Program-made: the position numbers and the translations under genes | Shown: piece by piece, positions 3,674 through 36,843 of the stretch | Layout: each line of letters opens with the position of its first letter | How positions within the stretch are numbered: the stretch's first letter is position 1 | The notes under the pieces: generated by a model | The model's input: only the letters and a program-made list of their open reading frames with translations | What the model was told of the DNA's origin: nothing | Database searches by the model: none | Assembly (NCBI GenBank): GCA_049999805.1 | Contig: JBNGIO010001638.1 | Location: 1 to 36,843, forward strand | Direction: 5' to 3' | From: Folioceros fuciformis | Taxonomy: Eukaryota | DNA length: 36,843 nt

Positions 3674-3676
3674 GCC

Positions 3677-6232
3677 ATGGCGGCGAAGCGGGGGAGGCGG
3701 GAGGCCAAGGCACCGGAATTGGACCATAGTCTGTGGCTGTCTGTGCTGGAGAAGTTGCCGGATCGGGGGGACCGGCAGGCGTGGAGTCTGGTGTGTAGGT
3801 GGTTTCGGGATCTGGAGGCCAGCGTGCGGAGGAGAGTGCAGCTGCTGCGGGTGGACAGGCTCGCCGGTGTGCTTGTAAGGTACCCCTTTTTGGAGGAGCT
3901 GGATCTGTCCTACTGCCGCCAGGTGACGGACGGGAGTCTCGGAGTGGTGGCTAAGTACGCTGGCCCGAGGTTGCGCAGCTTGAAGCTGGTGAAGGTGGGA
4001 GGGTTTACGGCGGCGGGATTGGAGGCCGTTGCCACGGGATGCCGGGGCCTGCAGGCTGTGGATCTCAGCAAGTGTGCGCAGCTCACGGATGCTGGTGTCA
4101 CTTCCTTGGCCGCGCTGCCCAGGCTGCTGTCTCTTACCTTGCTTAACTGCCGGCTCGTCACGGATGCTGCGCTTTGCGCCTTGGCGGCCCGGTGTGAGGG
4201 CATCAGAGTGCTGGTCCTCAAGTGGTGCATCGGGATTTCGGATGCCGGAGTTGTGGTGCTGGCGTCCGCTTGCCGGAAGTTGCATACTTTGGATCTTTCT
4301 TGCACCGAGGTGCGCCTTCTGCCACGGCTTGTGGTGTTTTTACTCGCGTGGAGTGGAGCGGAATGGAGTGGAGTGGAGTGACGTGAGTTGCAGGGGCTCC
4401 TCGCCACTGACTTCATGTAGTTCGTTTGGTGCAGATAACTAATGTGTCTCTGCGCCAAATATCGACTTTGAGGGAGCTTGTGATCTTGAATCTCGTGAGG
4501 TGTGACAACGTGGACGATGTCGGCTTGGCCCTCTTGAGAGACGGATGCAAGTCCTTGAAGGTATGCGACCTTCCTTCACTTGTTCTGTGTTGAACCGGGG
4601 TGATATTCCCTCACTCATCCTTTGCTCCTTACTCGTCGGTGCAGAAGCTTGACATCTCCAGATGCCCTCTCCTGACCAAGTGGGGCGTCATATCCTTCGC
4701 GGATGGCACCAAGTCTCTGCAACAGCTCACTCTCTCCTATTTTATGCAGGTAGGTGTCGGCTTCTCGCTTCCAGCATGCGGAGGAAGGTGATGTTCTTCT
4801 CTCACTTTCTGACAATGTCCACCGGTGGATGTTCAGGCTTCTCCGGAACTTCTGGCCAGCTTTCAGAAACTCTCAACCCTTCAAGTCATAAACCTTGAGG
4901 GCTGTCACGTCACACAAGGAGGGCTAGCATCTATCGGACGAGGGTGTAAAGGACTCAAGGAACTCATCTTAAGCAAGTGCACCGGCGTCACAGACGCTGG
5001 CATCCATGCACTTGTTTCCAGTTGTCCTGGTCTCGAGAGGCTTGATCTGACATGTTGCGGGGAGATCACGGACCTGGCTCTCTCCTCTATCTCTGCATCT
5101 TGTAAGCGCCTGCTCAGCCTCAAAATCGAGTATTGCAGCCTCGTCACCGATAAGGGCATATCCTTGCTGGGCCAAGGTTGCCCCTTGCTGGAAGAATTGG
5201 ACTTGACGGATACCAGAATACACGATGAAGGTTTGCTTTCATCCAACGTTTCTTTTTCCTCTTGTGTCCGAAGCTCCTGTGAAATGTTCAAAATCCCTAT
5301 CTTTTGCCAGCGTCCTCCCAAAAGTAACATCACTGTATTCCTCAGGTATCATGTCTGTGGCGGAATGCAAGTCGCTACGCCTTCTAAAAGTAGGCATTTG
5401 CATGAACATCACCGATGTGGGGATCAGTCACCTGGGCTCAAGATGTTGGTCCACAATCAGAGAAATTGACCTGTACAGGTAAGACTAGTCACATGGTTGT
5501 TGGTAAAGTCATCCGCAAAGATTTGAGCTTAAGAATGTTAGCCTGATCAAAGTCTGTGGTATGTCCACAGGTCTACCGGAGTTGGAGATGTTGGTGTGGA
5601 GGCGATGGCCAACCGCTGTCCGAGGTTGAGAGTTGCCAATCTCTCCTACTGTACTCGGATAACGGATGTTGCAATGCAGTCCCTTTCTAAGCTCGCAGAT
5701 CTCCAACAACTAGAGATGCGGGGCTGTGAGCTGGTCTCGTCTGCTGGACTGGCCTTCCTGGCAGCCGGATGTCAACAAATGGTGGAGTTAGACATCAAGC
5801 ACTGTAAAGGCATTGGTGATGAAGGCATCTTCGCTCTCGTCAAAGGGTGTACACAATTGAGACAGGTCATCTTCTTTACAACATCCATTCCCACCCGTCC
5901 GTATGTCACTTGGTTCTTGACAGTCCAACGGGGTCTGACACGTCGTCAACTTCCTTGTGCTTTTGCAGATCAACATCTCATATTGTTCAAGTATAAAAAA
6001 CCTGGGGCTTTTGGCCTTGGCTAATCTTAACTGCGTCCTAGACGTCAAGATGGTCCACCTGAGAAGCGTCACAGAGGACTGTTATGAGAAGGTACTACTT
6101 GCCTTTCGCACCGTTAAGAAGGTGAAGCTGCTTGTAGGTCTGCAACGAGTGATTCCACCAGACGTGATTGCATTTGCTGAAGGTCGAGGCTGCCGATTTC
6201 GGTGGATGGACAAACCACCGCCGCTCTCGTGA
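3677..6232 (+). CDS. F-box/LRR-repeat protein (FBL3-like)
   Basis: N-terminal F-box-like segment (DRQAWSLVCRWF), then many Cys-containing LRRs (LDLSYCRQVTDGSL, LDLTCCGEITD). Exons are about 3677-4309, 4435-4560, 4645-4749, 4837-5230, 5346-5478, 5571-5865 and 5969-6232, all GT-AG and in phase. Confidence 0.93.
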
Positions 6233-6808: not shown

Positions 6809-8505
6809 TTACTTCTTACCAACAGCCTCCCTCCAGGCATTCAAAACATGGAATATGATGTCCGCCACTCCAACTCCATGTTTCACCTGTTACGGAAGGC
6901 ACGTCTAACAAACTCAACAGACCGCAAAACAAGACGAGAGCGGACAACTGTACAACAAACCAACCTGCTACAGAGGCAGATGGGAAACGCACCTGGGCAA
7001 ACACAAAGGGTCCTTCATCACGCATGCGCAAAGCATCCCGCTCCATCACCTTCAAATCTGCTCCAACAGCTTCAGCCAGATCTGTCTTGTTGATGACCTG
7101 TGTACGTGCAAGAAGGAACGGAACTGTTTGAAATATGCTACAGATAAAGCACCCAAATCCACAGTCCATCCATCATGCAGCTAAGAGATGCGCAAAACCT
7201 CACATGTCACACAACTTACCAGAAGATCTGCTTGCGTGATGCCTGGCCCGCCCTTACGAGGTATCTTGTCGCCTCCCGCCACGTCAATGATGTATATGAT
7301 GTAGTCAGCAAGCTCCCTGCTAAAATTCGCTGCAAGGTTGTCTGTGAAGCAAGGAATGTCATTCTCCCAGTGGTGGCTCCTTATCCTTCGGCTTGGAAGC
7401 AAGAGGACATGAGCAGGAACGAAGACCTCATTCGATCCACTTACCACCACCGGACTCACAAAGGAGAATGTCTGCAGCAAAACTATGGGTCAAGTCTTCT
7501 AGTGGCCCTAAATTTATGCTGATATCCTCCCTGATAGCAGCATGAGGGCACCCCCCTGTCTCTACAGCTCTGATCCGTTCAGGAGGGAGGGCACCATGTT
7601 TCACAAGAAACTCTGCATCTTCCTGAGTGAAAATATCGTTGGTGACCTGTAACCACACATCACGTGATCAGCATAGTACCTCAGTTTGCTCCAATCCTCA
7701 TGTCTTCTACTACGTGGTCTCAAATGCTTTGCAGCCATAACTCATCGACGTGTCGAAGTATCTACTCACAGCAGCTATGCTGTATTTATCCCGAAGTTGT
7801 ACGCACAGTGCATGCATAAGAGCTGTCTTCCTGCATCGCCACCAACAACGGGGCCACTCAAACTCCATGCCGGAATTACGAAACCACAGGCACGAAAGCA
7901 CACAAGACCATAGCAGGGAGTGAAAGAAAAGCCAACCCTGTGCCCACGGGGCCACCGATTCCAACGGTGAAAGCTCGATCCGCAAAGTCCCGTGCCAGAG
8001 GCTTTGCACGTCGAAGGAAGAAGCCTGGAGAGTAAATTGGATCATGGGTGTGAGGAGCCAGCCCATCATGGGAGTGGTAAAGTTTCCCATCGTTCGTAAA
8101 ACTGCATTGCAGACATGAGGGAAATTTGAGGAGCTCATAGATTCCCCTGGAACAGCTACAAAGGGGATCAAGGAAAGGAAGCCAAGGTAACACTAGTATT
8201 CAATTTCAGTGGAGACCTCCCAAAAAGCTGCTCTTTACACAAAAGGTCAGTTCCCGCAGGCAAGATACACAGCATGTCAGAGGATTTGAAAGAGACAGGG
8301 GCGTCAGAGTCGATGAAACCCAAGAGACTCACCTCACGTCTGAGTGCGTATGCCCATCCGGGTGATGATGGCCATGTGAGTGGTGGTCATCGTGCGAGTG
8401 CTCACCGTGGTCATGAGCATGGGAGTGGTGAGCATCCTGATGCGGATCCTGTGGGGCATCCCCTTGCTCAGCCGGGTTCTCCTCCAAGTGCGCACTGGCG
8501 TCCAT
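6809..8505 (-). CDS. ureG: Urease accessory protein G (Ni-chaperone GTPase)
   Basis: His-rich N-terminus, [10 protein letters not shown]-loop [50 protein letters not shown] and NKTD. Exons: 8505-8333, 8101-7937, 7830-7770, 7646-7445, 7341-7220, 7097-6993 and 6886-6809. Confidence 0.97.
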
Positions 8506-8857: not shown

Positions 8858-10070
8858 ATGGGGTGGGCTATAGCCCTGCATGGTGGCGCGGGTGATATTG
8901 AGAGAACAGAGAGAGTGGAGCAAGCAGAAAAGGCCTTGCAAGAGTTCTTACAACTAGGGGTCTCCCTCCTGAAGGACGATACAGGGAAGTCCGCTCTGGA
9001 CGTCGTGGAGATTGTGGTACGTACCAGGCACCTATTGCTCGATCCTGGGCATGTGCACTGTCGAATGCAACCATGCATTGACAGGCAACGTTGAAATGGC
9101 ATGCGTTGGCTCGTCCGGCAGGTTCGAGAGCTGGAGAATTGCCCGCTTTTCAATGCAGGGAAGGGTTCAGTCCTGACCAACAAGGGTACAGTGGAGATGG
9201 AGGCCTCCATCATGGACGGAGCCACTGGTAACTGTGGGGCAGTGTCAGGGCTGATCACCGTGGTAAACCCCATCTCCCTTGCCCGACTGGTGATGGAAAG
9301 GACTCCCCACATCTACCTGGCCTTTGCTGGAGCTGAGGAATTCGCTCAAAAGCAGGTGAGGCATACACTTTCGGTGTCCATGTCAAGGTTGGTAGGGCAG
9401 TGATTCATAAAAAAACCCTCGGTCTGAAGCCTTCACATCTTGTTCACTCAGGGAGTGGAAACCCGAGCCCCAAGCTACTTCATAACAGAGCGCAACATAG
9501 AGAGGTTGAAAAACGCCCAAACTGCGCATGCTGTACAGGTTTTCCATACTTCTACCTTTGTGCTCATGCAGCTGCTGTGAAGCACATTTGCCTCACTGTG
9601 CTCTGCCTGTGCAGCTGGACTACTCTGCCCGTCCCTCCTCCGACGTTCTGGCCGAGGGCTCTCAGAGCCAGTTGGAGACTGTCGGGTGTGTTGCTGTCGA
9701 TAAGCTTGGGAACTGCGCTGCCGCAACCTCCACAGGAGGCCTTGTGAACAAAATGGTGGGAAGGATCGGGGATACTCCTCTTCCGGGTTGCGGAAACTAT
9801 GCGGATTCCAAGTGTGCTATTTCTGCAACAGGACAAGGAGAGGCTATCATCAGATGCACTGTTGGTCGGACTGTTGCAGCTCTCGTCGAATACAAAGGCT
9901 TGTCCCTCCAGGAGGCAGCAGATCAGGTTGTTGGCAAGCTCGGCGAGGGGAATGGAGGACTGATCGCCGTCACCAATCAGGGAGACCTCGCCCTTGCTTT
10001 CAACTCCAGGGGGATGTTCAGAGCCTATGCCAGCAGTAAGGATCCCAAACTCAGGGTTGCTACGTGGTAA
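8858..10070 (+). CDS. Plant-type L-asparaginase / isoaspartyl peptidase (Ntn hydrolase)
   Basis: [31 protein letters not shown], catalytic [14 protein letters not shown] and GRIGDTP. Exons: 8858-9016, 9122-9355, 9452-9538 and 9615-10070. Confidence 0.97.
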
Positions 10071-26244: not shown

Positions 26245-28429
26245 TCAACCCGTAAGCGCAGGATTGAGAATAGGGTGACAAGGATTTTGCTGGCTGCATG
26301 CTGTTTGCACTACGGCCGCCTCCAGGAATTGCAACGCGGGAGTACCTGCTTTCACGCATCTTGGAGTTTTGTATTGCCACGTTAATGATCCCGGCTTGGC
26401 CCCTGTCCGCTGGGCCAGCTTACGGAAGCTTCCAGTCTCCACAATGCGCAGTTCCAAAGGAGCGATTGTCCCGATATTCCGTCCTCTCCTGTACGGCTCA
26501 CTCAGTCCGGTTTCGATTGCTAGGCAGCATTTCTCCAGTTGAGCGATGCTCACAGCCTGCCCGTCTGGCCGGACGAGTTCCCAAAAAATAACGTAATGGC
26601 CAGGGATGGAGGCCACGGTTACCGCACTGCTGTAGTCAACCAGCTGGACATCTGGTGGGAGTTCCTGCTTGGCGGCAGCCATCAGCACGCGCATGAGCTC
26701 CAATTCCTCTGTTTTGTCCGTGCTGATGCTCAGAATCACGTTCTTCCTACCCAAGAACCTGACCACGGGGGTTGTGTGGTGATAACCGACGCATTGCACG
26801 ATGTCCCCAATCCGGTATCTCCACAAACCTGCGCCACAGGTCAAAGCAAACCCTTTGGTCACACTCTTCTCCAGCGGGGAAGAGATGACAAGATCGTTAG
26901 TCCAGCGGGGAAGAGATGACTAGGTAGTTAGCCGCACCATCTACTCACCAGCGAAATTGGTAACCACCAATTCGTACCGTCGTCCCTCCTTCACAGCTGC
27001 GAGATCAATCGGTTCGAGGAGGCTCGTCTCGGACTGCTCCTCATCCAGCTCAAGGAACTCAAAGTAAACAACGTCCGGGATTAACGCGTAGGTAACCTCC
27101 CTTGGAGGCACATTGAGATGGACATTGAGCCCCAGGTAGGCTTCTGATGCACCGTAAACTTGCGACCAAATTTGGATGCGACCACCAGTGAGGAACTCTA
27201 CGTGGTCGACATACTGCTCCATGGAGCCAGTGGTAATGCAAGTCACCACCTGCACATTTGGCCAGAGTCGAGGTAAAATGCCCTTCCAGGAATCCTTACC
27301 GCATTCCTTTCTGATAGAGGTAGCCACATCCTTGTCAACGCTGACCAGCAGCTTAGACACGGATTCACGGAGGGCAGCATCTGTGATACGGCTGCTCAGC
27401 TTGCCTTGTTCTATGTCACTGCATATCTCCTCCCACCACTCCTTGAGGTTGCCGAAGACGTTGGCCAGACCAGAAGCAAATGCCACAGTTATTTCAGTCA
27501 CCTGCCCAGAGCGGATTAAGCCGCAGACAAGATGGCAGTAGGTTGCCTGTTCGTAGTCGTCGCACAGGATAGCCGCTAGTGGACTTGTCACGACCTTGGA
27601 CAAGTCTGCATCCGTTGGTAATTTGCTAAATCTCTTCTTGAGAAGGGAAGTTATCACTGTCCCCACTGTCAGCCCACCTGGACTCGTTGATACGGTGCCT
27701 AGGGAAAATAACACCAGAGTCCAGCCCGACTCCTTGGCTTCGAGTTCTCGACCTGCTTGTCTGAGCCACATTTGAAATAGGATGTGAGGTAAGCTCACGG
27801 GATCCTTCATTCCTCTTCTTACAAATTGATGCTCGCAACCAAGATGCAAACACTTAACGTAGCCAGCTAACCCTGCGCCGGGGTCGCAATTGCTAGCTAG
27901 CCAGCCCTAGAATGCGTAGCCATGACCGAGATATGACCAGGAACAAGATTGCAAGGTTCAGTGTCACAGCTTACTGCTCAACAACTTCTTGGTAGGAAAA
28001 GAATCGCGCGATGGCCTCGAGCTGCGACGCTGTAACCGGGAAGACCTTGCGCTTGCCTGCGGATGTTCCCGAGCTGCTCACCAGGAAAAGAGTATCGTTA
28101 CTTCAGGCACGGATGGAAAGAAAACCACGGACAACTTGAAAAATTGATGTTCGTCACCTGACGAAAAATTCAGTCGTATCCTCAGAACACAGAATGCGAG
28201 CAGTGTGATCTTCCATCAGCCGGTCAATGTCCTCAGACACCGCATCGTAATCGATCACCGGAATGCAGGAGCGGAAGGACTCCAAGTCGGTTCTGCCATT
28301 GAGCCCGTGCCTTCGGAGGTATTCGCAGTCCGCGTTCTTGCGGAGCAAATTCTCCAGGAGCTTACTTTGCACTTCCCTGGCGTTCTCCACCGAAAGCTGC
28401 AACGATGCGGCAACAGCAGAAGGCGCCAT
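26245..28429 (-). CDS. GH3: GH3-family acyl acid amido synthetase
   Basis: Nucleotide-binding motifs SSGTSAGKRK, YGASE and YRIGD, plus IPGHYVIFWE and QYKTPR. Exons 28429-28158, 28073-27975, 27760-26949 and 26828-26245 are in phase. Confidence 0.95.
26870..26920 (+). repeat. 20-bp direct repeat in GH3 intron 3
   Basis: tccagcggggaagagatgac occurs at 26870 and 26901. Confidence 0.9.
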
Positions 28430-29112
28430 GTTCCACAGCTCTCAGCTCCGTTAGAGGCTGGATGCTTACGACGCTGCACAGCCTCAGCCTCAGCCCCCCC
28501 TCAGCCTTACCCACATTCCACCTTCCCCACGTACTCCAGGTTCCTGCCTTTGCAACAGAATGCCAGAGCTGGACAGCGTGATTGAGAGCATGCAAGTTCT
28601 TCCAGTCGGCGAGAATACTTGACCACAATGTTCCTTACGATTAAAAAAGTCTTATATATCTGCTCCACGATACCTCGGATCGTTCCGAATTATGAAAGCG
28701 GAACCTTGTGGTCCGCGCCACTGCCATATGCGCCGGACCAGAACAGTCTGACGACATCTGTTAGGCACTTCGTACACGTTTGTCGGACGTATCGTCCTCA
28801 TGTCTTCCTCCGAAGCCACGGCATTCTTACCTTTACAGAATCGACGTCACCCAAAGCGAAGCGCGCTTCAAGAACAAAAAGCAGGCACCTCGGTCCACAT
28901 GTTCCAGAGACTGGAGGGCAAACGGCTGCAATTTCTACCTGTTGCCATTGCCGAATTCAATCCCGAGTCCCGAGTCCCCTGTCCTCTTGTCGCAAAAGTT
29001 CTGGATTAGCTGAGCGAATGGCAGCAGCCTGGAGGGCAGCTGAGCTGAGCTGCGCAGCTTCCTGGTCATAACCGTGGTGCGAATCCAGACGGTAAGCAGC
29101 CACTTCAGAAGA

Positions 29113-30591
29113 ATGACGATGACCCTACCTGCTTGGCTGCTTGCAATCCTAGCATCCCTGGCGTTGCTGGGCGCACCTGGGGAAGGCTACGTCGCCTCCA
29201 ACTGCTCGGCCTCATTCACAGCCGCTACGTGCCCGAAACCCCCGACAGTGCGGGGCTTCGATCTCTCTGCTTACGTCGGGAAATGGTACGACATCGGCAG
29301 CACAGCCAGGTTCAAGCTGCGCACCGAGTCCGGCTTGGTCTGCATCTTCGCCAACTACACCCTGGCCGAGGCCCCGACGCCCACCCAGGGCGCCAATGTC
29401 ACCGTCGTCAATTCCGGCTTTCAGGTGGAGCATTTTCGATTTCCAAGCGTCTCATAGGTGAAATTGCAACGAGCCGGCAAACGGGCTTCTGTCTTTCGGC
29501 TTCAGTGGCCAGCATGCCGATTGACGACATGAAGTGGGTGATCTCGTGCAGGTGTTAGGCCCGATAGCTTCTCGGGGAGTGGCGTTGATCCAGGCCAGCC
29601 TGCAGGACATCTGTTCTGCAGCCCGCGCTTTGTGCTCCGCGGTTGGCCCGGTCGGGCCCATCTCCAGCGCCGTTGCACAGGTGCAAAAGTTGAGTGCAGA
29701 CCTTGCCGGGCCGGGCGCCCAGACTCTTGCTTCCGCGGTTGCTCACATTTCCGAGGCGCTGGGGTCTTTGCTAGACCTGGTGAGTCCCCTGTCGGAGAAG
29801 GTGAAGGCAGCGACCATCCAGGCCGTGGCGCTGAGCCAAGCAAATGGGAGCAAGTCCGGGAGCTTGAAAGACTTCTCAGCCATTGCTAAGGGGTTGGAAA
29901 CTGGAGTGTTCCGCTCTCTGAAGACTGTGGGGAAGATCTCACATGCCCGAGGGCAGATTATCTCGGTACGCCGCGGCTCCTCTTCTCGAACTGCGTTGGA
30001 GAAGTTGTGAGTGGTCTTGTCACATGTCATTCAATTTGACTTGGGGTGGTGCGGCAGGTCGCCAACAAGCTGCTGGCTGGCTCTCCGAGCAACGCGCAAG
30101 CAGCCTTCTTGCTAACCCTCGCCGGGACCCAGATCTGGGCTGAGGAAGAGGCCATCAGTTTGCAGAACGTGGAGATTGCGTTGGGGAGCCAGAAGCTCCT
30201 GGAAGTTGCCGAGGACCTGGTGGCACCGGACAATTCCAGCCCATCGCAGCGCTCCTCCCTCACTGGATTTGCAGAGCAGAGCGCCTCGGATCCCGCCAAG
30301 CTCGACGTCTCCTTTCCCATCCCTGGACTGCCGCTGAAGTCAGGACCGTACTGGGTTGTGGCTATCACCGGTGAGGCAAGCCAGGGTTACGAGGCTGCCG
30401 TCGTCTTTTCGTGCTCCCAGTTGTCCCAAGGGGAGGTAGACACCGACCTCTTCATCTTGTCCAGAACCCCGACATTGTCCCCAGATGTAACCAACTCCCT
30501 GTTAGCAAAGGCAGAGGAATTTGGATTCAGCTTCAGCTGCGACAATCCTTTTCTTCTCACCGTACAGGATCATCCAAATTGCCAAAACTGA
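29113..30591 (+). CDS. Secreted ApoD-like lipocalin with a ~200-aa internal helical insertion (~419 aa)
   Basis: Signal peptide, SCR1 CPKPPTVRGFDLSAYVGKWYDI, CIFANY and VTVVN. After the insert come AKLDVSF, PYWVV, YEAAVVFSC, SCR3 FILSRTPTL and TVQDHPNC. Exons 29113-29424, 29552-29965 and 30058-30591 have phase-0 introns. Confidence 0.85.
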
Positions 30592-30869
30592 CTCCAGTTG
30601 AAGGAGGGCACCTATGCACCGATCTCATGCGTCACAGCCACGCTGTCCTATCTTCGGACAACCAGGTTTCTATCAACACACCCCTCGGGTCTTGAGCATC
30701 GACTTGGTTTTCCTGGATTAAGTAAATTTGCTCTTCCACGACTTTTGGCAGACCTCTCCTCCACTGCTAACGAAGAGTGGACTCACCTTGAACACCAGGT
30801 GATGACAGCAGCAGTCTGAGGAGTAGTAACAGCCTGAGGCCGGTACCTCGCATTTCTCGAGGCACATCC

Positions 30870-31420
30870 CCGAGAGAGAGCTCGGGATTCCATGCAACAC
30901 TCTGTTAGAATACTGAAAGCTGCTGCCACACTTGTCATATATGCTTACCAAACTCCTGCAGATAAACATTCGAGCTTCAGGGTCTCTGAAAATCAGCTGG
31001 TTCTCCTCGTTAATTTCAAGGCTGGGGATCCTACATTTTACTTCCACATGCACGCTGTAGGGACTGTCACAACACTCGGCCCTTGCGTTCTCCTTGTAGA
31101 GATGAAAGCGCTCCGTGGCCTCTTGCCCAGAAAGGAGTACAGAGATATCATGATTTATTCCACACTCCTCCTATCGTGGAGACAATTCAGCCTCATCGCC
31201 TCCTTCGGTTGGGTTGGCCAATGGCATACGCCTTTGGCACGGACACAAATGTGACAGGCTCGGGTACACACCAAGGACTTCTTGGGAAGTACCCTGGAAT
31301 CGTAGCATTCCACGTCACCCCATCCTTTTTGTGAAAGACCGTCAGAGGACCCTCTCGGCTTGCTTCTTCTTCAAAGTTGCCACGCTTTGCATACATGGCA
31401 CGGGCTCGATGCCTACGACT
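30870..31420 (-). pseudogene. Highly decayed PPR relic
   Basis: The fragments MYAKRGNFEE, VFHKKDGVTWNATIPGY and FICRSLVSIYDKCGS lie in different frames. Confidence 0.7.
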
Positions 31421-34220: not shown

Positions 34221-36843
34221 ATGGCCTCCCAGGTGAGTGAGACTCTACGCATCCGCAAGAGCCCGCATAGTTGAGAGGCTTTGAGTTCTACTACCGAGCC
34301 ACTTGCCGGGAACAGTAGCGCATTGTTGTCGTCGCGCCCGCAGCTGTAGTTCTCAAGTGCACTAGATGCTACGTATTTTTTCTTTTTCCGCCTTTTCGGA
34401 AATCCGGGTGGTCCAAGTGTAGCGTTTGCTTTGCTCCAGCTTGCTGCCAAGCGCACGGTCTCATGGTTGTTGTATCTGGGCGCAATTGCAGTCCAAGGAG
34501 ATGGTTGCGGAGAATGGAGCTTCTTGCAATCACACTGGTCAGCTGTGTTTTGCAGGGAATTTTTGAGTTTTGTACGAGAGCTCTTACTCAGGGGATTGAC
34601 ATCGTGTTCTTGCAAGAATGTAGGAGGAGAACAAAGGGTCCGGGGATCAGAGGTTTTTGTTGGGGGACTCCAGCGTAATGTGACAGAGGAGGTCATCGCT
34701 GAGGTGATTGAAATCTTTGGGCAAACTTCCAGCCGTTCACTGGTCAGCCGAGAGGGTGTGCGTACGACTGGTTGGAGCGTCGTTGTGCTGACTGTTGCGT
34801 AAGTTGTTCTGTAGCTTTTTTCCATGTGTGGAGAGGTGGCTGAGATTCGGATAATGAAAGATCATTCTGGATCTCCCAAGGTGAGGGAATACTGCTTCTG
34901 CTTCCCATACAATACAAGTTGCTGGAAAGAGTCGACGCAGACAATTTATTCTGGATGTCGTTTAGTAGGGGTACTGTTTTGTGCGGTTTACAACAAAGGA
35001 GGCCGCCCTGAAGGCTCAGAAAGAGAAAAATGGTACCACGGTATGTAGTTGGCATTTCTGCTGCCCTGTCTCTCCAACTTGGACAGAAACGTTTTCTGAT
35101 ATCTGTCTCGCTTGTCAACTGAATCACGGAAAGGCTGCTCACATGTCTTTCCTTTCTGACGAAGTTTTGCTTGGCTCTGATGAAGCTGCAAGGGAAGAAG
35201 ATTGGAGTCACTCCGTCCACCGATCAAGATACCCTTTTTCTTGGAAATCTACGAAAAGGTATGTTCATGCTGGTACTGGGACGTTTCCCATCCAGCCAGT
35301 CCGTTTGTCGTGGATCGGCTATAGGCGTGCATGGCGGTTAGCCATGATGTCATTTGCTGCTGGGCATGCAGAGTGGGGGACTGTGGAGGTTGACCAGATG
35401 GTGAGACAGGTGAGTGTTTGTCTGGATTGTGTCTTCCTTTATTTTCTCTCAACAGTTTCACACTTTGAATGTTTACAACTCAAGTTTCACTATATCTTGG
35501 TTGATCTTGCACATGGTACAGGCATTCCAAGATGTGCAGTCAGTCGAATTGGCTATGCCACCAAGGACAGGGGAGTCACCCACTAACAAGAAACGACAAA
35601 ATCGAGGCTTTGCGTTCGTGCATTTCGCTAGCCATGCTGTGGGTGACATACCAACCTCCTTTCGCTAATATGCCCTGGTTAGTTTTTGTGGCAACGTGCA
35701 TAGATGCCTGATGTGGAATTCTTGTATCTGCAATTTCCTGACTGATTTGTGTACCCAGGCAGCAGCCTAGTCGTTAGCTGTTCTGGCAGAGGTTGGAGTG
35801 CACTAAGATTGGCTTGTCTTGCAAATTTCTGTACTGATTGGGTCACCCATTTGGCGTTGGCATTGGGCAGTGCATGGCAACACACTGCATGGCTATGCTC
35901 CACATAGCTTTCAAGGCTGCAGCAATCCCTATGCATGGTCAATGTTCGGTCCATTCAATTCATGGTCGTCATCAATTCCACCAAAATCAATTCCCTCAAA
36001 TGCAGTCTCTTAATGGAGCTCTTACGCCTCACTAATTTACAGATTTCCCTCATTCTTCGGTAACAAATATCCTTGGTGGTGTCGTGGTCCAGTCATGGTG
36101 ATTGGTAGGTCCTAAAGTTGACATGGTAAAATGTACACTGAGATGTATCCAGTTTACATAGTACAGGACCATAAACCTCTAATTCATCCCGGATTCCTGT
36201 CTTCCTTACTCCCTGAGACCCATTGAAGCAGGGATGATGGGGTTTTCAGAGTGATGGAATTTGTGACTTGTATTCTTTTCTCCAACGATAAAACAAGCCA
36301 GCACCCTCACCTACATTAAATATCATGTCACGCCACCGGCCATCCTCATTCAAGTTTAGGGCCTGGAAAACGTGAAGGTCAGTTTGAAAGACGCATTGTT
36401 GCTGGTCTGGACCTCTTAAATGGTATGCTCTTAACGCTAATCTTTTTAGCTGATCGGTCATGTGTATCTTCGCTCATGTCCTCCACTGTATGATCTGGTA
36501 TTTCCATTCAAGTTGGATCAAGTCACCATCGGGAATATCGGGCTTGATCAAAGTCGAAATCTGGCATCCTTCCCTTTTGATCTGGTCACTATGGGAAATT
36601 CCATCACAGGCTGCAGCACGTGCGTATCGAGTAGCCAGTAGGCCTGATTTCATGCTTGGAGGAAAATGGCGACCTGCAATCGACTGGGCTGAGAATGAGC
36701 CTGAACCGGATCCTGATGAAATGGCTAAGGTATTGGAATGCTAAATATTCATTTGCGGGGGGGGGGGGGGGGGGGAAAGATTATCTTGGGCGGGCGAAAT
36801 CACTGTGGAGAACTTGTGCAGGTGAAAACGGCGTGGGGGGGCA
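34221..36843 (+). CDS. Multi-RRM protein, hnRNP Q/R-like, truncated at the window edge
   Basis: GSEVFVGGL (RNP2), KGYCFVRF (RNP1), LFLGNL, NRGFAFVHF and IDWAE lie on many short GT-AG exons. The first exon, MASQ at 34221-34232, is inferred. Confidence 0.9.

Follow-up and report, generated by a model that had tools for sequence, protein, structure and literature searches.

An expressed Folioceros fuciformis gene for a probable secreted lipocalin whose barrel is interrupted by a predicted helical bundle of about 200 residues

The window considered here is the whole stretch of 36,843 nucleotides analyzed from Folioceros fuciformis (contig JBNGIO010001638.1 of assembly GCA_049999805.1), and its plus strand carries a gene of three exons for a protein of 419 amino acids. 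As read from the sequence, the coding region of 1260 nt has a single terminal stop, and all of the exon junctions are in phase 0. The transcript begins with a 5' untranslated region of at least 28982-29112, and the start codon at 29113 is the first in-frame ATG after the upstream stop. Exon 1 (29113-29424, 104 aa) encodes a signal-peptide-like N-terminus, a segment with Cys31 and Cys40, and the lipocalin strands A to C, and it is followed by a 127-nt intron (29425-29551). Exon 2 (29552-29965, 138 aa) has no stop and consists of insert throughout; tblastn places the inserts of homologues onto 29546-29974. A second intron of 92 nt (29966-30057) leads to exon 3 (30058-30591, 177 aa plus the stop). 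The first part of this exon (30058-30249, aa 243-306) encodes the end of the fourth insert helix, the fifth helix, and the linker to strand D. The remainder (30250-30591, aa 307-419 and the stop) supplies strands D to H, then the C-terminal helix, strand I, and the tail of the protein; Cys361, Cys403, and Cys417 lie within this barrel part and tail. The 3' untranslated region covers at least 30592-30800, as the contig that defines it extends further.

The exon boundaries, read from the sequence, are borne out by X1, a public run stored as contigs and labeled as RNA only by guess. Two of its contig records match the window with 0 differences, record 1 at 28982-29374 and record 7 at 30084-30800, and these set the limits of the untranslated regions. 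Record 4, a contig of 499 nt, crosses both introns. Its 127-nt gap (29421 to 29549) is equivalent, when moved by three nucleotides, to a cut at 29424|29552, and its 92-nt gap (29964 to 30057), moved by one, to a cut at 29965|30058; each intron is of the GT..AG type and in phase 0, and the insert is kept. The splicing is thus the one that had been proposed in the first-pass annotation of this DNA. A joint that skips exon 2, one of the findings that the annotation had named as telling against it, is not listed among the X1 contigs, with the proviso that contigs drop rare variants. The loose end of record 5 represents a second, related transcript in which an exon-2-like sequence abuts exon 3. The runs X2 and X3 share almost no sequence words with the locus, and tblastn with seven family proteins finds no further copies in the window. 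The locus is a real, expressed plant gene.

The N-terminus of the product has the look of a signal peptide. Residues 1-25 (29113-29187) consist of a hydrophobic run followed by small residues, and no 19-residue segment of the protein is more hydrophobic than the one that begins at residue 3 (hydropathy 1.98). There are five N-x-S/T sequons. The homologues have similar N-termini, and in the Selaginella homologue about 95 residues rich in Pro and Ser follow the signal peptide. The Physcomitrium patens members (Pp3c11_15530, Pp3c1_13830) of a group named seedless-plant-specific lipocalins (SLLs) are predicted to be secreted by both SignalP and DeepLoc, according to a preprint (bioRxiv 10.1101/2025.03.13.638958). 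From these features we infer that the protein works outside the cell. Two other destinations were considered and set aside: plastid or thylakoid targeting of the kind seen in CHL, because the N-terminus reads as a signal peptide and not as a transit peptide, and a GPI anchor, because the homologue sequences, judged by eye, have no hydrophobic C-terminus.

The conserved regions of lipocalins include the G-x-W of strand A, known as SCR1, and the Arg that ends strand H, known as SCR3. Both are found in the product. The G-x-W is at aa 56-58, within GKWYDI (aa 56-61), and G56 is conserved in 18/18 and W58 in 16/18 of the aligned rows; R378 stands at the end of strand H and is conserved in 17/18. 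Cys77 lies in strand B, and strand C (..VTVVNSGFQ) runs to aa 104, where exon 1 also ends. The Pfam family PF08212 (Lipocalin_2) is matched in two pieces, with profile positions 1-35 in exon 1 (aa 49-86; E 0.02 and 15.3 bits, which taken alone is under the cut-off) and positions 51-137 in exon 3 (aa 64-158 of the exon product; 32.2 bits compared to a cut-off of 24). This split match bears out the original observation that the first strands stop where exon 1 stops and that the barrel picks up again near aa 307, within exon 3. Among the members of the family alignment, 20 of the 25 match PF08212 at E <= 0.1. On the models described below, the product is predicted to form the eight-stranded antiparallel barrel, closed between strands A and H and followed by a C-terminal helix, that defines a lipocalin. 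The G-x-W and strand-H Arg regions are also drawn in the Fig. 1 legend of the same preprint (bioRxiv 10.1101/2025.03.13.638958).

Between the two barrel parts lies the insert, aa 105-306. Its 202 residues are 17% Ala, 13% Ser, and 13% Leu, with K+R at 7% and D+E at 7.5%, so the early description of some 200 Ala/Leu/Ser-rich residues, read without a stop from exon 2 and the start of exon 3, holds. By mapping to a model of the homologue P0015, five helices can be placed in it: H1 at aa 108-134 (with Cys125 and Cys132), H2 at 140-152, H3 at 157-199, H4 mostly in exon 2 and ending in exon 3, and H5 at 252-296. Helices H1 to H4 are amphipathic, with hydrophobic moments of 0.26-0.40 and few charges, and no segment of the insert reaches transmembrane strength (the highest Kyte-Doolittle mean over 19 residues is 1.37). 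Sequence conservation in the insert is low, with a mean pairwise identity of 0.19 compared to 0.41 and 0.35 for the two barrel parts. Only seven of its columns are conserved in two-thirds or more of 18 rows, and its one conserved motif is an L-x-Q at the turn between H3 and H4. In 20 of 22 rows, spanning charophytes to ferns, its length keeps within 191-231 aa, and the other two rows have shortened inserts (131 aa in Ginkgo and 145 aa in Closterium P0014).

Searches with the insert return little. The exon 2 product matches no Pfam family; alone against PDB sequences it finds only cavin-1 coiled coils (E 0.024 and 0.3), and in the ESM Atlas its best score is 0.88, which is under the lead level of 0.9. 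The P0015 insert alone has no usable match in the ESM Atlas, and a homologue search with region 95-297 of P0015 scored 7993 candidates and recovered nothing but the query.

The fold was approached with AlphaFold2 (AF2) models of P0015, whose identity to the three exon products of the window is 43%, 22%, and 34%; both the full-length model and that of the insert represent this homologue and not the window protein, and the alignments behind them are shallow, at 23-25 rows. The full-length model (pLDDT 89.0, pTM 0.86) runs in the order strands A-C, five helices, strands D-H, helix, strand I. In Foldseek, it aligns across the insert with apolipoprotein D (ApoD; 2hzq, TM 0.83, rmsd 2.2, E 5.1e-6) and with Sandercyanin (TM 0.82-0.84). 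Modeled alone, the insert has a pLDDT of 93.3 and a pTM of 0.87, so that the same five helices come from two separate AF2 runs at pLDDT 89-93, and DSSP assigns the insert helices only, with no beta hairpin. The models suggest an elongated up-down bundle in four layers, each about 43 residues long, the first of them split into two helices. Compared by Foldseek on its own, the insert has no match at E <= 0.001, and the best are ClyA and designed four-helix bundles (6z0c at TM 0.64-0.65 and 8d9o at 0.62-0.64).

The barrel halves of the window protein itself were also folded together. They pair with an ipSAE of 0.73 compared to 0.01 for the best control, a mark that is reached by 51/78 solved complexes and by 2/108 mismatched pairs. 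Three runs agree in at least 90% of contacts, with a partner pLDDT of 76, and the contacts join strand H to strand A and strand D to strand C. Part of this success may be due to the likeness of the halves to solved lipocalins. Together with the P0015 model and its match to ApoD, the co-fold supports the idea that a helical bundle sits in a loop of a barrel whose two halves form one unit.

The cysteines offer a clue as to how the two parts are held together. Four core Cys are common to the inserted and uninserted forms, at positions that we take to be those of the two ApoD-type disulfides. The inserted forms have four extra Cys, and all eight are present in 10/18 inserted rows. One of the extra Cys, which follows the C-terminal helix, is found in just 1/23 uninserted rows. 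It is present in 12/12 of the rows that have the first insert Cys and absent in 4/4 of those with another residue at that position; the short-insert rows, Ginkgo and Closterium P0014, retain the C-terminal Cys although no partner for it is aligned. Two family-specific disulfides, Cys125-Cys403 and Cys132-Cys31 in the window protein, probably tie the bundle to the N- and C-terminal segments of the barrel, where both the pairing and the placement of the bundle with respect to the mouth of the barrel are read from the topology and the co-occurrence of Cys rather than from coordinates. The predicted staple of the first helix to the barrel termini, and the lack of any transmembrane-strength segment, argue against an arm that inserts freely.

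The gene is far from alone. A HMMER scan with exon 3 gave 78 cluster representatives at E <= 1e-3, and 17 of these are proteins of 370-534 aa with the exon 3 match at the C-terminus, the same layout as in the window. A word-index search for longer relatives of exon 3, which is insensitive compared to the HMMER scan, gave none at E <= 0.001 among 1896 candidates. For 13 of the 17 long homologues, a single alignment covers the spliced product from one end to the other with its insert (E 4.7e-57 to 5.4e-22 against a set of 81 proteins), and for the remaining four it breaks into two pieces; because of the end-to-end alignments the split architecture is more than a chance arrangement. The 17 include proteins from Selaginella, Diphasiastrum, Marchantia paleacea, Calypogeia, Riccia, Ceratopteris, Ginkgo, Closterium, Mesotaenium, Chara, and a Leptophrys transcriptome, with no angiosperm among them, and six are from JGI, Logan, or MGnify records. 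All are named in databases as hypothetical or lipocalin-domain proteins. A family profile search, capped at 8000 candidates, gave at least 10 proteins, with further paralogues from ferns and liverworts among them, and tandem paralogues are seen in ferns, liverworts, Chara, and Closterium. As judged from these sequences, the inserted lipocalins are a conserved streptophyte family, one that appears to be missing from angiosperms.

Relatives without the insert also exist. These are proteins of about 200 aa that align as two pieces abutting at the insert site. For example, the moss protein P0075 matches residues 7-104 and 307-417 of the query with five residues between, and the window's barrel has a direct uninserted relative in the moss Ceratodon (KAG0579753, 211 aa). 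In a tree built from the barrel only, the insert label needs three changes, and the uninserted protein of Chara is sister to an inserted one from the same alga, so a single origin of the insert is not supported. The deep branches of this tree are unsupported as well, and the window branch falls in an unsupported polytomy.

The reading that fits best, and that we hold to be somewhat better than an even bet, is that of an expressed three-exon streptophyte gene for a secreted lipocalin of the ApoD/Blc/TIL type, in which a bundle of about 200 residues in the C-D hairpin is a rigid appendage to a ligand-carrying barrel. The architecture is secure, while the function is something we only infer. By analogy with its nearest structural relatives, the barrel would still carry a small hydrophobic ligand, such as a lipid, sterol, tetrapyrrole, or carotenoid. 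The bundle would be an appendage of fixed shape, probably held to the barrel termini by the two disulfides. Judged by topology, the L-x-Q at the H3/H4 turn would lie at the barrel-proximal end, adjoining the ligand entrance, where it might lengthen the pocket, control access to it, or serve as a docking surface.

An unlikely alternative is that the bundle, closed in solution, opens on a lipid, cuticle, or membrane surface like an exchangeable apolipoprotein and passes lipid to or from the ApoD-like barrel, so that the protein would act as an extracellular lipid shuttle. In insects, apolipophorin III folds as a bundle of five helices and opens in contact with lipid, and the insert is likewise modeled with five helices, the first four amphipathic and poor in charges. 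The best matches of the barrel are apolipoprotein D and the lipid-binding Blc, and two apolipoprotein families appear in Pfam searches of the 25 members, ApoLp-III (PF07464) in 1/25 at E 0.0075 and Apolipoprotein A1/A4/E (PF01442) in 1/25 at E 0.072. However, both are single matches below the curated cut-offs and of a kind that is common for coiled coils, and the bundle has no structural match to an apolipoprotein among the matches listed. Also, the two insert Cys probably lock helix 1 to the barrel, which would limit any opening.

More ambitious, and rather improbable, is the notion of a two-module device for extracellular lipid handling that dates from the charophyte algae, before the move to land, with the barrel holding a hydrophobic molecule and a surface-active bundle engaging membranes, cuticle, or wall polymers. 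In its extreme version, the bundle would insert into foreign membranes as ClyA does. If the notion were true, it would point to delivery or scavenging of hydrophobic precursors of the wall, cuticle, or spore coat from Chara to Ginkgo, a function then lost in flowering plants.

The insert could instead be a functionless spacer that is tolerated and evolves fast, or AF2 could be over-confident about a bundle in an Ala/Leu-rich sequence. The low identity and the few conserved columns of the insert would suit this, as would alignments of 23-25 rows, but it is a very unlikely account of a region that keeps its length in 20/22 rows, retains its two Cys and the L-x-Q, and gives the same five helices in both AF2 runs. 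Still less can be said for a ClyA-like alpha-pore-forming or membrane-inserting module, with the barrel as a lipid-recognition head and the whole as a secreted defense toxin. In ClyA-type toxins, a hydrophobic beta-tongue or head inserts into membranes. ClyA structures are the best non-lipocalin Foldseek matches of the whole model (4phq_B at E 4.1e-3; 4pho_B at E 7.7e-3, TMt 0.50) and the top matches of the insert alone (4pho_A at E 5.7e-3; 4phq_B at TMq 0.54; 1qoy at E 2.4e-2). Yet the insert fits them at TM 0.35-0.54 and an rmsd of 6.5-8.7 A, never at E <= 0.001, and designed bundles fit better. Besides lacking a hairpin or any strongly hydrophobic segment (maximum 1.37), the bundle is probably stapled by its Cys; no haemolysin E family is among the 22 Pfam families listed for the 25 members, and no ClyA is among the 60 listed of the 286 matched PDB sequences. 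Finally, a gene-model artefact, in which two genes have been merged or an isoform without exon 2 is the real product, is barely credible: exon 2, at 414 nt, is a multiple of three and would keep the frame if skipped, and contigs drop rare variants, but a single contig spans exons 1-2-3, the related transcript also joins exon-2-like sequence to exon 3, and the layout recurs in homologues annotated by independent genome projects.

Lipocalins are seen as compact single-domain barrels, and the anticalin literature treats the four loops at the open end as the elements that tune ligand binding. Against this background, the family described here is a natural example of a domain inserted into a lipocalin scaffold, and it may interest protein engineers. 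Since it is probably secreted, has tandem paralogues, and is apparently missing from angiosperms, it is also a tractable candidate for functions specific to early-diverging plants. Marchantia and Ceratopteris are both transformable.

Among known systems, human ApoD (2hzq/2hzr) is the best structural and profile match of the barrel, and the family profile reaches it among PDB sequences at E 2e-19; Sandercyanin (5ez2, 5f1e) follows at E 4.9e-16. Both of these proteins are secreted. Each is a single domain of about 170 aa whose C-D turn is short, whereas the window protein has about 200 residues more at that point; they are without the four extra Cys, and identity in the structural alignments is 12-14%. 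Bacterial Blc and the plant temperature-induced lipocalins, or TILs (1qwd, 3mbt, 8wb2), share the Pfam family PF08212 (family profile E 2.4e-13 for Blc and 2.2e-9 for TIL-1), and neither has the insert. No angiosperm TIL is among the 30 identified clusters of the 78 exon 3 matches. TILs have no signal peptide and are placed at the plasma membrane or in the chloroplast (bioRxiv 10.1101/2025.03.13.638958).

Two other plant proteins with the lipocalin fold, the chloroplastic lipocalin CHL/LCNP and violaxanthin de-epoxidase (VDE), are also longer than a bare barrel, and the lipocalin domain of VDE (3cqn) is a partial Foldseek match. Their extra length is at the termini, in the transit peptide and flanks, and not within the barrel, and they are plastid targeted rather than secreted; the terminal position is described for PpCHL in the same preprint (bioRxiv 10.1101/2025.03.13.638958). 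As for ClyA/HlyE (1qoy, 4pho, 4phq), it is an elongated bundle of long antiparallel helices and the top Foldseek match of the insert. The match is weak (E >= 5.7e-3, TM <= 0.54) and comes without the beta-tongue, the hydrophobic head, or any sequence similarity, and the insert resembles designed four-helix bundles as well as or better than it does ClyA.

A further comparison is with the SLLs, described as a third group of plant lipocalins with a signal peptide and a predicted extracellular location, ranging over charophytes and seedless plants (Wang et al., bioRxiv 10.1101/2025.03.13.638958). The main text of that preprint makes no mention of an insert in these proteins, the word occurring only in its cloning methods, and the literature search found no published description of a stable domain of about 200 residues in a lipocalin loop. 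The first-pass remark that the architecture was not a recognized one stands to that extent; at the same time, a conserved family with this layout was already in the databases under uninformative names. Ceratodon KAG0579753 probably belongs to the SLLs, and the inserted family is probably part of the SLL clade or adjacent to it. The inserted form is found in lycophytes and ferns, but also in Ginkgo, a seed plant.

The lipocalin gene occupies 29113-30591 of the forward strand, with exon 1 at 29113-29424 (104 aa), exon 2 at 29552-29965 (138 aa), and exon 3 at 30058-30591 (177 aa plus the stop), separated by introns of 127 and 92 nt that are both phase 0 and both bounded by GT..AG. Scripted splicing gives 1260 nt, or 419 codons with a single stop at the end. 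The Lipocalin_2 profile (PF08212, 146 positions) is matched in two parts. Its positions 1-35 fall on exon 1 aa 49-86 (E 0.02, 15.3 bits, alone below the cut-off) and its positions 51-137 on exon 3 aa 64-158 (E 1.2e-7, 32.2 bits, cut-off 24); the exon 2 product has no meaningful Pfam match. The insert (aa 105-306, 202 residues) contains 17% Ala, 13% Ser, 13% Leu, 8% Val, and 8% Gly, with 7% Lys plus Arg and 7.5% Asp plus Glu. The three-exon reading, the split match, and this composition bear out the first-pass annotation's description of a lipocalin divided by about 200 Ala/Leu/Ser-rich residues, and the end of exon 1 does coincide with the end of strand C.

The proposed splicing also agrees with a public sequencing run, X1, which contains 82% of the sampled words of 29000-30700, is stored as contigs, and is labeled RNA only as a guess. 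When its contigs were aligned over 28900-30800, a 499-nt contig (record 4) ran from 29373 in exon 1 over a 127-nt skip, the whole of exon 2, a 92-nt skip, and 34 nt of exon 3. Its joints, with equivalent cuts of +3 and +1, are 29424|29552 and 29965|30058 with GT..AG ends, matching both predicted joints exactly and keeping the insert. Contigs over 28982-29374 and 30084-30800 show no differences to the window, which sets minimum untranslated regions. No exon-2-skipping joint appears among the contig joints listed, although contigs may miss rare isoforms. A related second transcript in the same run, about 91-93% identical to the window and at higher contig depth (56-242 versus 7-14), is seen in record 2 (14 differences over 29221-29374) and record 5 (5 differences over 30057-30124). 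Record 5 is preceded by 93 unaligned letters that look like the last part of exon 2, with 4 differences across a 30-letter consensus. Since this exon-2-like sequence joins exon-3-like sequence directly, the second transcript is probably the insert-bearing product of a paralogue, homeologue, or allele.

The insert-bearing protein belongs to a conserved family. A HMMER scan of the exon 3 product against 1.84 billion cluster representatives matched 78 proteins at E <= 1e-3, 17 of which are single-unit proteins of 370-534 aa with the match at their C-terminal end. In a phmmer comparison of the spliced product with a set of 81 proteins, 13 of these 17 aligned in one end-to-end stretch (for example, P0009 over query 9-419 at E 4.7e-57, and P0006 over query 13-413), and the other four (P0013, P0014, P0051, and P0039) aligned in two pieces. 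Members come from lycophytes (Selaginella moellendorffii, XP_024532267; Diphasiastrum complanatum), liverworts (Marchantia paleacea, Calypogeia fissa, Riccia fluitans), a fern (Ceratopteris richardii), a seed plant (Ginkgo biloba), charophyte algae (Closterium, Mesotaenium, Chara braunii), and six JGI, Logan, or MGnify records; no angiosperm is among the 17. One of the 17 is from the transcriptome of Leptophrys vorax, an amoeba that eats green algae, so this sequence may be prey RNA. Adiantum, two more Ceratopteris genes that share a scaffold, and a further Calypogeia gene came from a subsequent profile search.

The insert is weakly conserved in sequence: over 18 non-redundant rows its mean pairwise identity is 0.19, while the barrel parts before and after it reach 0.41 and 0.35, respectively. 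Counted from strand C to strand D columns, its length is 199 aa in the window and falls between 191 and 231 aa in 20 of 22 rows, with only Ginkgo (131) and one Closterium protein (145) being shorter. The Ginkgo protein (P0013, Gb_35276, 374 aa), besides its shortened insert, lacks both insert cysteines and has Phe in place of the strand-G Cys; it may be a gene model lacking an exon or a decaying copy. Separately, a 1321-aa protein of Closterium sp. NIES-65 (P0025, CAI5971409) holds three consecutive full inserted units (query 8-412, 7-393, and 38-367), which may be a real tandem fusion or the result of annotation joining three genes that lie in tandem.

Relatives without the bundle are also found. 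Some two dozen proteins, each of ~200 aa and from mosses, Chara, or marine protists, match the query in two pieces that directly adjoin. In the Ceratodon-type P0075, for instance, these pieces cover query 7-104 and 307-417 and lie five residues apart. By their alignment, such proteins are the same barrel without an insert. A tree restricted to barrel columns requires 3 changes of the insert label; shuffled labels require 13.4, and none of 500 shuffles went as low. In this tree, the inserted Chara braunii P0051 (GBG75481, 475 aa) is sister to the uninserted P0042 (GBG75484, 291 aa) with support 100, and the two genes are on the same scaffold, a few gene numbers apart. P0042 could have lost its insert secondarily, or its gene model may count the insert exons as intron. 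Given this pair and the unsupported deep branches, a single origin of the insert is a possibility compatible with the data.

Lipocalin repeats occur in other settings as well. Giant insect proteins, all annotated as uncharacterized, carry tandem lipocalins without the insert (P0005, Leptosia nina, 3464 aa; P0012, Battus philenor, 2906 aa; P0032, Schistocerca, 1360 aa), with 9, 7, and 5 exon 3 stretches, respectively, by HMMER and up to 19 partial stretches by phmmer. In Blattamonas nauphoetae, P0017 (KAK2954089, 3811 aa, named kinase-domain-containing in UniRef) has five matches, every 422 residues, only to query aa 301-362 (strands D-F), which in sequence is a repeated partial lipocalin-like segment.

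The folding of the two separated parts into one barrel was examined with AlphaFold2 on P0015, a 406-aa inserted homologue 43%, 22%, and 34% identical to the products of exons 1, 2, and 3, using the 25-row alignment A1. The model (mean pLDDT 89.0, pTM 0.86) has strands A (53-61), B (72-82), and C (85-94), then five helices (98-124, 130-142, 147-189, 195-236, and 242-286), then strands D to H, a helix at 369-381, and a short last strand. Foldseek gave 17 PDB matches at E <= 0.001, all lipocalins among the matches listed, including apolipoprotein ApoD 2hzq (E 5.1e-6, TM 0.83, rmsd 2.2, 373 columns spanning the insert), Sandercyanin (TM 0.82-0.84), and the Blc-derived Dib1; Blc, BBP, and TIL rank just above E 0.001. 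The family profile against PDB sequences likewise found ApoD (2e-19), Sandercyanin (4.9e-16), Blc (2.4e-13), and TIL-1 (2.2e-9). The two barrel halves of the window protein itself (exon 3 aa 58-177; exon 1 aa 26-104) were given as separate chains to complex prediction. They reached an ipSAE of 0.73 versus 0.01 for the best control; 51 of 78 solved complexes attain this mark, as do 2 of 108 mismatched pairs. Contact agreement between runs was at least 90%, with partner pLDDT 76. The lowest-error contacts join strand H (exon 3 residues 133-137) to strand A (exon 1 residues 57-62), and strand D (exon 3 residues 70-72) touches strand C (exon 1 residues 96-97), which in the model is the pairing expected for a closed lipocalin barrel. 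Since many lipocalins have been solved, this co-folding may partly be memory of the fold. Together, the predictions favor a single barrel with a helical bundle in its C-D loop, supporting the first-pass annotation's proposal of a bundle grafted into a barrel loop, and this architecture is very likely correct.

The bundle appears to be stapled to the barrel. Eight Cys columns are conserved in the family alignment, all eight being filled in 10 of 18 inserted rows. Four (window Cys40, 77, 361, and 417) are common to inserted and uninserted proteins and are presumably the two lipocalin disulfides, by analogy with ApoD; the extra four are Cys31, Cys125, Cys132, and Cys403. The Cys403 column is occupied by Cys in only 1 of 23 uninserted rows; wherever the 125 column has Cys (12 rows), so does the 403 column. 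It has none in the four rows with another residue there (P0019, P0046, P0051, and P0074), and it is retained in two rows gapped there, which have shortened inserts. This co-occurrence suggests that Cys125 is bonded to Cys403, which by elimination would leave Cys132 to pair with Cys31; the two bonds would tie insert helix 1 to the barrel's C-terminal and N-terminal segments. The lipocalin C-D loop is at the open end of the calyx and the insert cysteines are 18-25 residues into helix 1, so the bundle probably runs alongside the barrel rather than straight away from it. This geometry would bring the turn between helices H3 and H4 back to the barrel mouth. Apart from the cysteines, the insert has a single conserved motif, L198 and Q200 (15 of 18 rows for each), and it lies in this turn.

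The N-terminus of the window protein is signal-peptide-like (hydropathy 1.98 from aa 3), as are those of homologues, and the protein has five N-x-S/T sequons. In the Selaginella homologue, the signal peptide is followed by ~95 aa rich in Pro and Ser, such as occur in wall glycoproteins. The leading reading, still a tentative one, is that the protein is secreted and carries a small hydrophobic molecule, with a rigid, disulfide-stapled bundle as an extension of its barrel. The neighboring open frames make up an ordinary plant gene setting and suggest no obvious functional tie to the lipocalin. They match GH3 N-terminal, middle, and C-terminal domains at 26245-27906 on the reverse strand (E 2.1e-49) and, on the forward strand, F-box plus LRR repeats (3674-5469), Asparaginase_2 (9510-10070, E 1e-48), and RRM (34969-35586). 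Just downstream of the lipocalin gene, a 150-aa Cys-rich frame at 30718-31170 on the reverse strand runs into the region of the gene's 3' UTR; this frame matches no Pfam family at E <= 0.001 and may be due to chance.

The first-pass annotation did not recognize this architecture. It is not unique, being that of a conserved family, but the database names of the 17 long homologues are uninformative ("hypothetical," "uncharacterized," "lipocalin," or [quoted passage not shown]), and no paper describing the insert was found. Searches on charophyte lipocalins with a helical insertion and on six family-member gene identifiers returned nothing, and one on lipocalin, helical bundle, and domain insertion returned an unrelated review only. 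[quoted passage not shown] The inserted family is probably within or beside this clade.

The P0015 insert modeled alone (residues 95-297, alignment A2) gave the same five helices (pLDDT 93.3, pTM 0.87). Judged by length, they would form an up-down bundle with four layers of ~43 residues each, in which helices of 27 and 13 residues make up the broken first layer. A Foldseek search gave the insert alone no PDB match at E <= 0.001. Its best matches are ClyA chains (E 5.7e-3 to 2.4e-2, TM 0.35-0.54, rmsd 6.5-8.7 A), and designed four-helix bundles have somewhat better TM scores (6z0c, 0.64-0.65; 8d9o, 0.62-0.64). The insert has no Pfam family, only scattered sub-threshold coiled-coil matches, and in the family profile it draws only generic coiled coils (E >= 4.5e-5 among the best 60 of 286 matches). 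The insert also has no transmembrane-strength hydrophobic segment (maximum 1.37) and, in the predicted structure, no beta hairpin. For these reasons, the ClyA likeness is treated as generic for long bundles, a lead rather than membership. The inserted lipocalin is neither unique nor categorically new; it is a conserved, unstudied variant of the lipocalin fold with an inserted helical-bundle domain.
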